Origin: a virus
Lineage: Duplodnaviria > Heunggongvirae > Uroviricota > Caudoviricetes
Reading direction: 5' to 3' (one strand)
Length of the DNA stretch: 42,289 bases
IMG/VR virus record: IMGVR_UViG_641736224_000031
Below, in pieces: positions 21,001-24,000 of this stretch (positions are counted from its first letter, which is position 1; each line of letters opens with the position of its first letter). Position numbers: made by a program.

Positions 21001-24000
21001 TTCCTTTAATGAAATAACAATAAAAAATAAATCACAGAAAAACAACAAAACAACACACAAAAAAACCAAATAATAAACCCAAATAATCACCTTATTTTAT
21101 TATTTTTTGAGAGAGCTATTACTGAACAAAAAACGCTGACTATATACTCAAAACCAAACAACTATTCTGCCAATCAGGTATAATGGCAACACAAGGAATT
21201 ACCGTGTTTTTGCCTTCTCTGCCCATACAATACGGACATATACTTCATACTCTATTGTAATATTTCCATCCATGCGAACAACTTCATTTATCTGTAAATA
21301 ATATTCAAAATATTTATCACAGAAATCGTTTTTGGCCATGAACTGAGCACACTATAAAGTCCGGAACTGACTCTTTGTTAAATTACCTTAACGTTACCAG
21401 TAACACCTTCATAACAAAACATCACGGTATACACTGGGTACGGATATATTCCTGTGCTCCTTCCAGTTGCTTCTGCATTGCCATCAGCCGTTCTCTGAGG
21501 ATGAAATAATCCCGTTCAGCGGCTTCTGCCAGTCGGGGACCGGTTGCATTATCCACGCCGGAGGTGATGGGGGCTTTACGCAAGGAGCCTGGACAGTTGG
21601 CGTTGATGCGCAGGCGCTTACGACCAGCGGCAACATCAGCACGCAGAGTTTCATTTTCAGCTCTCGCATCGGCTAATTCCCTCGAGTATCTGGCATCAAG
21701 TGCAGCGACATCACGCTGGCGTACCTGCATATCAGTAATTGTCACGTTCGCCAGCTTCAGCTCACTGGCTTTTTTATCGCGTTGCGCTTTGTAGGTAATG
21801 GCGTTATCGCGGTAATGATTCAGCCCCAGACTAAGCACACCACAGGCTACCAGCAGGACAATAATCACCACACACAGAACACGGTTCATATCCCCCTCAC
21901 CCCACCAGCCATGACAAAGTTAAGACGCGCCAGGCAGTGGAAAAGCAAATAGCAACCAGCATTAGTGAAAATGAAATGCCGACGATTACACAGAGGATCT
22001 TCGCCAGCGTTATGAGCTTGTCTGACATGCTTAATCCTCTTCACGATTTCAACGCAATGACCAGTTTTGCCAGCCCATACAGCATCGGAGACACAGCAAT
22101 ACCGACCGCCACCCACTTAATAGCAAAAGCCAGCGCTCTGCTGACGTCATCAGTTACAGGCGCTTTCAGTTCAAGGCCGTTTTTCATAGTCAATCTCAAC
22201 AGAATTCGTTTATACTTTCCCATGTTCTCCCTTGCCTTACTCAAGGTCAGAAACACAAAACCCCGTTTGCGGCCAACAAACGGGGTTTTACTTTTATTCA
22301 CTTAGTTTTTGCCAGTTCGCAGGATTTCGTGTTATCCGCCAGTGTGAGCAAACCGCATTTTTCAGCAAAATATTCTGCTTATCTGTCAATTCCCCAGCAC
22401 GCCAGCGCGCTCTCCTGGTCACGCCGTGAAACCTGACCGTAGCAGTTGTTTGAGCGAATACGGCAGTCTCTGCCACCGTCCTTAATCCACCAGCGAATCG
22501 CCTCACACGCTCCCCTGCGATCACCTGCATTAATTCGTCTGTAAAACGTCGACGGGAAACACTTACCGGGACCAATGTTGTACGGACAGAATGACGCGAT
22601 CCCCGCTTTCTGGGGTTCGGTCAGCGGTACTTTAATATTGCGCTCCACCCACTCCAGCGCCTTATCACGTTCAATGGCGTTAACCTGGTCGCATTTTTCC
22701 TTCGACAACTTCATGCCCGGAACGACAGGTTTACCATCCACCAGGATGGCACCGCGGCAGATGGTCCAGATACCCGCACCATCACGGTATGCCGTGGTGT
22801 GGTTACCTTCTTTTTCGTCAAGAAACTGGTCGAGGATTTCAGGCGCAGACGCCCCTGCACCAATCAGCGCCAGAACGGCAGCCGACAGGCCGTATCTGAT
22901 TTTTGCGTTCATGGATATTTATCAGGGTTTATCGATTTCAAATCCCTGGATATGTTAAGTCTTCAGGCCAGCGGTGGAGTCTTCAGAGAACCCGTAATTA
23001 TTCCCGGTAGTTTTCCTCTGTAGGTTATCAACACATCCTGCGCCTCTAAAATTACGGGGCGCTTTTCCGGCAACGGACCATCCCCTTCACATAACCCGGC
23101 AGCAACATCCATGAAAAACTGCTTCGCCTGCTTTTTCGCCTCAGCTTCGTAAAACTCCAGCGTGGCACCTTCAGTACGGTCAAGACTAATCGCCACATCT
23201 GGCAACAACAGTGACGGATACCCACCAATTTCCGGTGCCACAGTAACAGTAATCTTATCCGGGTAATTATTTATCCCTTTAACACCCAGTTCGTATTTTT
23301 TCTTCATCGCTTTACTCCCCCCGCGCCGCCTTACGACGGTCCTCTCTGATTTTGAAATACAGGTTAGTCAGATACGTCAGCAGGCCAAACAGCAGACTCC
23401 CCAGCACACCGATTGCCACCCACTGGGACGGAGAGACTTTGTCCAGCAGCTGCAGTAACCAGTATCCCGTCCCCACCGCTGACGTGGTGTATGACACACC
23501 TGTTGTGATTTTTTCCATCTGATGTATGTCTCCGTCACCGCCGACAGAAAATGAAAGTAAAGGAAAACAAAAAGCCGCCAGTGTCGCCCACTGACGGCCA
23601 ACGCCGGGAGCCGTGATTATGGCATTCAGGCTCTGCTAAAAATGCCAGATAACATTCCGGCTCCCCCCCCTGATTCAGGTTATAAATGACACAATATCTT
23701 GACAACACCCATCACTGTCTGTCAGAAAATGTACTGCCAGATATAAGTATCATGTGAAACCCAACTATCCTTCTTAGCCAGTATGAACCGCCCCGGAAAT
23801 CCTGGAGACTAAACTCCCTGAGAAAGAGGTAAACAGGATGACTAAAAATACTCGTTTTTCCCCCGAAGTCCGTCAGCGGGCGATTCGTATGGTTCTGGAA
23901 AGTCAGGATGAATATGACTCACAGTGGGCGGCAATTTGTTCCATTGCCCCAAAGATTGGCTGTACGCCGGAGACTCTGCGTGTCTGGGTTCGCCAGCATG

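Follow-up and report, generated by a model that had tools for sequence, protein, structure and literature searches.

The closest described relatives of the lysis cassette considered here are those of phage 21 and of Qin, a prophage of Escherichia coli K-12. The cassette lies in the IMG/VR virus record IMGVR_UViG_641736224_000031 (Uroviricota; Caudoviricetes), a stretch of 42,289 nucleotides whose full length is called the window below. It shares with phage 21 and Qin a holin of family PF04971, a lysozyme resembling the signal-anchor-release (SAR) type with E-D-T spacing, and an Rz1 gene embedded in Rz. Qin carries the tight array essQ-ydfR-rrrQ-rzpQ, with ydfR in the slot between holin and endolysin, as here. 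However, rrrQ abuts rzpQ with no gap, whereas in the window the endolysin and Rz are separated by 489 nt containing a hairpin and two membrane open reading frames (ORFs), p60 and p43, for proteins of 60 and 43 aa. The cassettes of Shiga toxin (Stx) phages and of prophages Sp6, Sp10, Sp11 and Sp12 of strain Sakai are arranged as holin (S), YdfR, endolysin (R), antirepressor (ant), small ORF and Rz. They have the same S, YdfR, R, Rz and 88-nt segment as the window, and a p43 homologue stands directly before Rz, as in the window. In contrast, an antirepressor of ~190 aa replaces p60 in them, and the AAAACCCC...GGGGTTTT hairpin is absent.

In its working, the insert between endolysin and Rz may be most like the sar unit of phage P22, if the analogy holds, and it also resembles a type I toxin-antitoxin pair. 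In P22, sar is a short antisense RNA whose transcription begins within the 5′ part of its target gene, and the unit as a whole is inserted in the late operon (PMC2629481, PMC5415839). The RNA predicted in the window has in common with sar that it would start within the 5′ part of the gene it controls, that it is complementary to the ribosome-binding site (RBS) and that it would end at a terminator in the upstream intercistronic space; both units are insertions within a phage late operon. The differences are that the target in the window is a small membrane protein and not an antirepressor, that the arc and mnt repressors and a dedicated sense promoter are missing, and that the RNA is only predicted. 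The length of the P22 RNA, ~69 nt, and the position of its promoter were reportedly described by Liao et al. and by Wu et al. in 1987.

The explanation that we prefer overall, and to which we give about an even chance, is an ordinary mosaic lysis cassette with an antisense-gated unit between endolysin and Rz. A broader proposal is more tentative, and we rate it as somewhat less than evenly probable: the endolysin-spanin junction of many E. coli and Salmonella lambdoid phages may hold an undescribed class of cis-antisense small RNAs (sRNAs). Each would be made from a promoter within the first codons of an interchangeable small membrane-protein gene and end at a bidirectional terminator, and would gate that protein and perhaps, given the close spacing of the frames, the spanins, as a safety catch or timer of lysis.

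Endolysin-Rz junction and predicted antisense RNA

The features of the junction are as follows:

22291..22378, minus strand: conserved non-coding stretch of 88 nt after the endolysin stop, common to six gap types including the ant type
22257..22289, both strands: bidirectional rho-independent terminator hairpin, a 13-bp perfect stem flanked by AAAA and TTTT
22230..22246, both strands: stem-loop with a 5-bp stem and a 7-nt loop, between the terminator and the Shine-Dalgarno (SD) sequence (RNA folds)
22041..22223, minus strand: p60, single-pass membrane protein of 60 aa (ECs_2740, WP_001303555; phrog_1115/4493)
21897..22028, minus strand: p43, single-pass membrane protein of 43 aa with one predicted transmembrane helix (ECs_5740; phrog_4906)
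22187..22216, plus strand: predicted sigma-70 promoter antisense to p60, TAGTCA-18-TATACT (promoter scan; position weight matrix (PWM) score 9.19, tail 1.3e-4)
22223..22298, plus strand: predicted cis-antisense RNA of ~75 nt, derived from the geometry of promoter and terminator

The hairpin has folding energies (dG) of -21.3 kcal/mol in the sense and -18.7 kcal/mol in the antisense direction, with U-tracts on both sides, and none of 200 shuffled sequences folded as well (0/200). An earlier note on this DNA, made from the sequence alone, had placed a strong bidirectional hairpin between R and Rz at 22258..22290; the hairpin is there, one base away. Gap types A, B, C and E, which are defined below, all retain it, and the Salmonella homologue of p60 is preceded by another hairpin of the same design.

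The 60-aa membrane ORF that the earlier note had regarded as possible is annotated in RefSeq (22223..22041). It has a strong SD (AAGGGAG), and only 35 nt separate the hairpin from its ATG. An 86-aa reading of the same frame from GTG 22301 was rejected, as it would cross the hairpin and lacks an SD. As read from the sequence, p60 has a basic N-terminus and a predicted transmembrane helix at the C-terminus. Compared with alleles of E. coli and Salmonella that are as little as 67% identical, the gene is under purifying selection, the ratios of nonsynonymous to synonymous substitution rates (dN/dS) being 0.15-0.22. It has 118 homologues in Escherichia and Salmonella and no Pfam family, and a contig scan of representative genomes found no relatives. 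In a Salmonella prophage, a p60 homologue with its own hairpin before it lies between a lambda-type holin (PF05106) with a non-SAR endolysin (phrog_873) and Rz; p60 therefore travels with the pre-Rz position and not with the pinholin/SAR pair.

The p43 ORF, overlooked in the earlier note, begins 13 nt past the p60 stop, and 7 nt lie between its own stop and the start codon of Rz. It has 100 homologues, and its dN/dS ranges from 0.06 to 1.4; the ORF is kept but weakly constrained. In Sakai Sp10, Sp11 and Sp12, a p43 homologue lies between ant and Rz, and the ORF is retained directly before Rz in both A-type and ant-type cassettes. Neither p60 nor p43 gave a match in PADLOC. For these two proteins and YdfR, NCBIfam returned nothing and PHROGs returned only families of 'unknown function'.

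To describe the slot more widely, 107 contigs were retrieved by an 18-mer from the conserved 88 nt past the endolysin stop, and are thus a pattern-selected sample. They contain six alternative fillings between endolysin and Rz:

type A: the p60 and p43 pair, 28 contigs
type B: an unrelated 'LIDFSKLIRELR...' membrane ORF with a p43 homologue, 15 contigs
type C: the H-19B-type 'MFDFSKLIREIR...IRWW' ORF, 23 contigs
type D: an antirepressor with a p43 homologue, as in Sakai Sp6/10/11/12, 25 contigs
type E: a 'VRKYKRFF...AIRWW' relative of p60, 12 contigs
type F: another hairpin with four small membrane ORFs, 4 contigs

Many of the slot ORFs terminate in ...IRWW*, where the codons TGGTGGTGA also serve as the SD of Rz. 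The presence of the insert is polymorphic between otherwise collinear phages. With a 511-nt gap query at >=80% coverage, the insert was detected in 990 of 5,426 complete E. coli genomes (~18%), and it also occurs in the plaque-forming phages PhiR12_1 to PhiR12_5. The earlier note was right to take the insert for a unit of its own that is exchanged horizontally, and both intergenic positions, holin-endolysin and endolysin-Rz, are exchange slots.

Some contigs show further variation. In type F (L158, L130), type B (L111, L007) and L191, the pre-Rz slot holds up to four tandem single-pass membrane ORFs, and the small ORFs of these five share shuffled segments (AFAIKW..., AFAIR...IRWW). One contig has a small ORF fused in frame to Rz. 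The 88-nt stretch contains an 18-nt hypervariable patch that is often palindromic, e.g. CGTTGGCCAACG. It also holds GGATAACACGAAAT, which loosely resembles the 5′ end of AgvB.

The top PWM match of the 489-nt gap on either strand is the site antisense to p60, which lies within codons 3-13 and is aimed at the hairpin. The RNA predicted from it would start ~7 nt past the promoter, opposite the p60 start codon, would cover the SD and the 5′ untranslated region, and would end at the U-tract UUUUACUUUUAUU. In Sakai coordinates, this would be ~2,692,053-2,692,127. The RNA is predicted to fold as a 5′ stem-loop carrying the anti-SD, followed by the terminator (dG -24.6, z -3.95). The stem-loop at 22230..22246 forms in this RNA and also in the sense mRNA, where it partly covers the SD. 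No sense-strand sigma-70 promoter for p60 or the insert was found with the PWM, the best scores being 7.3 in the gap and 5.2 upstream of the hairpin. A candidate sense promoter starting from TTGACA at the 3′ end of the endolysin gene was rejected, as it has no -10 element at workable spacing.

The same arrangement recurs in all the hairpin-associated first ORFs examined, namely those of types A, B, C and E and the Salmonella homologues, which fall into two unrelated N-terminal sequence families. In each of them the best sigma-70-like site of the region is antisense and aimed at the hairpin, with the -10 element a short way into the ORF and transcription predicted to begin at the start codon:

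type A (window): score 9.2
type E: TGGACA-18-TATACT, score 11.7
Salmonella L088: TTGTCA-18-TATACT, score 13.2; different hairpin of the AAAACCCC...GGGGTTTT design
Salmonella L089: score 11.6
L092/L093: score 9.4
type C (H-19B, unrelated 'DFSKLIRE' head): TCGAAT-17-TAAAAT with extended TG, score 11.5
type B (L007, unrelated head): TCGCAA-17-TAAAAT, score 10.4

As controls, 335 ORF starts taken from the window and from three prophage regions of Sakai were scored; 3.6% of them reach 9.19, 1.8% reach 10.35, 0.9% reach 11.5 and none reach 13.17. For the lowest-scoring member of either independent head family, these controls give a joint chance of ~6e-4 or less. The predicted antisense RNAs are 76-103 nt long, and all of them fold as one or more 5′ stem-loops, which carry the anti-SD, and a terminator that ends in a long U-tail. 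In each of the three hairpin versions, the U-tract on the antisense side is the longer one. Stem-loops analogous to that at 22230..22246 are formed from different sequences in types B, C and E and in Salmonella L088. The SD is fully sequestered in the last two: in type E (L135, L110) and L088, the SD of the p60 relative is locked in a 7-bp hairpin (AGGGAGG..CUUCCCU). In type E, there is in addition an 8-codon leader ORF (MGREVLSL), its stop overlapping the GTG start, which resembles mok/hok translational coupling. A geometry like that of sar is predicted for gap types A, B, C and E as well as for three outgroups from Salmonella/E. coli. Based on this comparison of sequences, the hairpin and the small membrane-protein genes look like an undescribed unit under the control of a short antisense RNA.

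The hairpin also has to be seen within the late operon. The gene of the Q antiterminator lies upstream at 28523..29218 (PF06323, E 4e-91), with a promoter-like site and a tR′-like hairpin just downstream of it. Between Q and the terminase small subunit gene (window 19000-29500), the late strand has at least five strong sites of a hairpin plus U-tract, each at a boundary of exchangeable gene blocks:

28459-28436, minus strand: late-strand hairpin
27095-27077, minus strand: late-strand hairpin
23599-23573, minus strand: late-strand hairpin
22289-22257, minus strand: late-strand hairpin, the one of the endolysin-Rz gap
20001-19982, minus strand: late-strand hairpin

Q-modified RNA polymerase reads through such terminators, as is established for lambdoid phages. 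An internal terminator is expected here because the operon lies downstream of Q together with at least four other strong late-strand hairpins, and, given the read-through, it does not imply a separate promoter for Rz/Rz1. Of the two alternatives that the earlier note had derived from the terminator, read-through to Rz/Rz1 is thus ordinary under Q, while a promoter of their own is not implied. The hairpin at 23599..23573 (minus strand) has 11 pairs, a dG of -21.2 and an UUUUUGUUU tail, and stands 55 nt upstream of the holin start. According to a 2026 preprint, Pas sRNA genes directly adjoin the holin/lysozyme operon.

We suggest the following course of regulation. The late operon would be transcribed from pR′ by Q-modified RNA polymerase, which would ignore the internal terminators. 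The hairpin would primarily be the terminator of a constitutive antisense RNA of ~75 nt, begun inside the first codons of p60 and covering its start codon and SD. We infer that this RNA is made and that it represses translation. In the lysogen, this RNA and the termination of unmodified polymerase in the sense direction would jointly silence the membrane protein; the downstream genes may be dampened too, given the close spacing of the reading frames. The block would be overrun only once Q-driven late transcription floods the locus, and p60 and p43, when expressed, may modulate lysis. If the antisense RNA is real, lysis in the Stx-phage lineage, whose timing governs toxin release, would be controlled at the RNA level as well, and the RNA would explain why the slot always opens with a terminator and then a small membrane-protein gene.

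The comparisons point to a gate by an antisense RNA not described before, and the terminator-plus-small-ORF unit merits modest attention. Its value lies also in a testable prediction, that of an antisense RNA at the endolysin-spanin junction. Moreover, three widespread uncharacterised families (YdfR, p60 and p43) are found inside one of the best-studied phage modules.

Core cassette and the YdfR gene

The remaining genes of the cassette are the following:

23312..23518, minus strand: class II (phage-21 type) holin, 68 aa (PF04971, E 8.8e-33, full-length; phrog_9876/20 'holin')
22963..23307, minus strand: YdfR/DUF1327 family protein, 114 aa, soluble (PF07041, E 1.1e-44; phrog_406)
22379..22912, minus strand: SAR-type endolysin (R21-like lysozyme), 177 aa (PF00959, E 1.5e-24)
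21422..21889, minus strand: Rz i-spanin (PF03245, E 2e-46)
21484..21669, minus strand: Rz1 o-spanin, embedded in Rz in the +1 frame (PF06085, E 4e-19)

The whole cassette is on the minus strand, in the order holin, 114-aa gene, endolysin, hairpin, p60, p43 and Rz/Rz1. A 6-kb stretch around it is 100% identical to many E. coli O157:H7 chromosomes. In strain Sakai, the window corresponds to prophage Sp14, where, besides the two small ORFs already listed, the holin is ECs_2743, the 114-aa gene ECs_2742, the endolysin ECs_2741 and Rz/Rz1 ECs_2738/2739.

The holin ORF starts at its sole in-frame start codon, and the sequence has no in-frame start upstream. A dual-start motif for an antiholin (S21 71/68) was looked for in this ORF and not found, and only the 68-aa form is present. 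In contrast, the holin gene of Sakai Sp6 and Sp10 and the K-12 essQ have 216 nt and encode a 71-aa form with extra N-terminal residues, like the phage 21 antiholin. The translated endolysin begins with a Gly/Ala-rich segment (YGLSAAVLALIGAGASA), from which a SAR-like release from the membrane is predicted, and has the catalytic spacing E35-D44-T50 (E-8-D-5-T); its dN/dS is 0.11. The core of the cassette is therefore a member of the phage 21/Qin type, minus the dual-start antiholin form of the holin.

The 114-aa protein matches PF07041 with 151 bits (cut-off 25) and is named 'YdfR family protein' in RefSeq. By tblastn, the gene was found in 101 phage records, mostly of Stx1a, Stx2c and other Escherichia phages. 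In 170 holin-endolysin pairs from fetched prophage and viral contigs, a sample biased by locus retrieval, the gap holds a YdfR homologue in 114 cases (67%) and other content in 31, and the two genes abut in the remaining 25. The family is restricted to Escherichia and Shigella and occurs in C-terminal variants of 114, 116, 176 and 183 aa, the forms of 176-183 aa carrying an additional C-terminal region. With a dN/dS of ~0.4-0.6, and >1 in some pairs, YdfR evolves fast for a phage protein, compared with the value of the endolysin given above.

According to a 2026 study (PMC13232886), YdfR of Qin interacts with the catalytic half of RNase E, as judged by two-hybrid and pull-down experiments; RNA was recovered along with the protein, and the transcriptome was little affected. 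The AlphaFold2 model of the protein in the window has an overall predicted local distance difference test (pLDDT) score of 61.5, and only its N-terminal domain is usable. This domain consists of three beta strands and a helix (pLDDT 70-87), and the C-terminus is disordered. A Foldseek search of the model against the PDB gave no fold assignment (best match E 0.16). A likeness to double-stranded-RNA-binding domains was considered on weak Foldseek matches (prob 0.14-0.3) and judged not credible. In PADLOC, YdfR had a sub-threshold match only (E 0.022).

The earlier note was right about the parts of the cassette: the phage-21-type pinholin, the SAR endolysin and the spanins are supported by PF04971, PF00959, PF03245 and PF06085, the 114-aa gene does sit between holin and endolysin (23307..22963), and the comparison with DUF1327/YdfR that it had proposed identifies the protein as a family member. 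Its description of this gene as unusual does not fit the same slot in Qin, the 101 phage records and the 114 of 170 gaps, and the label 'non-canonical' for the cassette fails as well, both extra inserts being common fillers of known variable slots. Among the findings that would speak against it, the note had named that the gene is a conserved, ordinary component of such cassettes with known function; the first half of this is the case. What we have is an ordinary mosaic lambdoid late-operon lysis cassette, with the order S21-type holin, YdfR, SAR endolysin and Rz/Rz1, in a common, already-annotated arrangement of O157-type prophages. The finding of the earlier note, as it was stated, is ordinary, and part of its interpretation is wrong or unnecessary.

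Alternative explanations

Several observations weigh against antisense control of the junction. A search of Rfam at E <= 1 over 20000-25000 on both strands gave no match in the gap and, elsewhere, only the ALIL pseudoknot of IS629. The Hfq-CRAC table for Sakai has no peak in the endolysin-Rz gaps of Sp6, Sp10, Sp11, Sp12 and Sp14, in a screen that relies on Hfq binding and dropped sites within 100 bp of genes unless antisense. The promoter in the window is only moderate, with a poor -35 element (TAGTCA) and a score that 3.6% of control ORF starts attain. In the alignment, synonymous sites under the antisense promoter are no more conserved than those of the rest of p60. Most type A alleles carry an A-to-G change, by which a G.U pair is left in the sense RNA while the terminator of the antisense RNA acquires a C.A mismatch; the five G-C pairs adjoining the U-tract stay intact. 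In ant-type gaps, a weak antisense site (9.5) is present at the ant ATG with no terminator in the antisense direction, and we do not claim a sar-like unit there. Two further p60 homologues lie outside lysis cassettes, after tail-fibre genes and after nanS-p. As a candidate for the RNA, EcOnc33 (~71 nt) was rejected, since it sits inside nanS-p. A literature search on the locus tags of the cassette gave nothing relevant, and none was found on antisense or type I systems in lambdoid lysis cassettes.

Some of these points would be natural if p60 and p43 were plain accessory late genes, co-expressed with the spanins. The hairpin would then be a passive terminator, a stabiliser of the mRNA 3′ end or a recombination boundary of the endolysin module, and the antisense sites would be a by-product of AT-rich 5′ coding sequence that yields no functional RNA. 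The frequent terminators of the late operon suit such an account, as does the place of the hairpin in a conserved endolysin-proximal segment, whichever ORF comes next. The absence of a listed Hfq peak, the share of control starts with an equal promoter score and the alleles in which pairing is perfect only in the sense RNA point the same way. However, promoter and terminator are placed in the same way relative to each other behind two unrelated kinds of ORF head and with the different Salmonella hairpin, at the joint chance given above, and the U-tracts are longer on the antisense side in every hairpin version. We consider this account doubtful, though a serious competitor to antisense gating. 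An autonomous type I toxin-antitoxin system for addiction or abortive infection, with p60 as the toxin, the antisense RNA as the antitoxin and no relation to lysis timing, appears improbable. Like hok/sok and its relatives, the unit does encode a hydrophobic protein of <=60 aa and has an mRNA structure occluding the SD, and an antisense RNA covering the RBS in cis is predicted; the overlapping leader ORF of type E is like mok. Homologous units also occur outside lysis cassettes, and O157 prophages are known to carry type I systems, e.g. hokW-sokW (PMC8621323). Yet, of the features of a type I system, the small hydrophobic protein is present and a toxin promoter of its own is not: sense scores upstream of the hairpin do not exceed 5.2, only 35 nt remain between hairpin and ATG, and sense transcripts from farther upstream would run into the terminator. 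The expression of p60 appears to depend on Q antitermination, unlike that of type I toxins. There is no homology to known toxin or antitoxin families, searches of Rfam, Pfam and PADLOC matched none of the known type I or defence families, and the true hok/sok of this prophage lies elsewhere, at 31228-31402.

The earlier note had also offered the option that the insert is an independently expressed moron. Such a unit would be active in the lysogen, for instance in superinfection exclusion, and Rz/Rz1 would then need a separate promoter. The insert is indeed present in some related phages and absent in others, as classically defined morons are, and small inner-membrane exclusion proteins are known among morons (HK97 gp15, P22 SieA). 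However, the placement of promoter and terminator is not that of a moron. There is no sense promoter between the hairpin and the ATG or elsewhere in the gap, the terminator is upstream and not downstream of the ORFs, and none stands between p43 and Rz. The ORF spacings of 13 nt and 7 nt are consistent with co-translation with Rz. We regard an independent moron as very improbable.

Neighbouring elements

Upstream of the holin, between it and the nanS-p esterase gene, there is a copy of the insertion sequence IS629/IS1203 (IS3 family) at 23784-25093 on the plus strand, with its ALIL frameshift pseudoknot at 24119-24235. It sits inside the Q-dependent late transcript in the opposite orientation and may be polar on lysis gene expression here. 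Directly downstream of Rz lies pchC (20643-20957, minus strand), encoding a PerC-family activator of the locus of enterocyte effacement (PF06069). It is followed by a DUF3950/YnfO-family gene at 20337-20561 on the plus strand; the same family is found near the lysis genes of K-12 Qin. At gathering score, Rfam matched the sok antitoxin RNA of the hok/sok locus mentioned above (31228-31402) and the STnc100 sRNA (27120-27292), both on the minus strand. Three tRNA genes, likewise matched at gathering score, lie downstream of Q at 28066-28312 on the minus strand.

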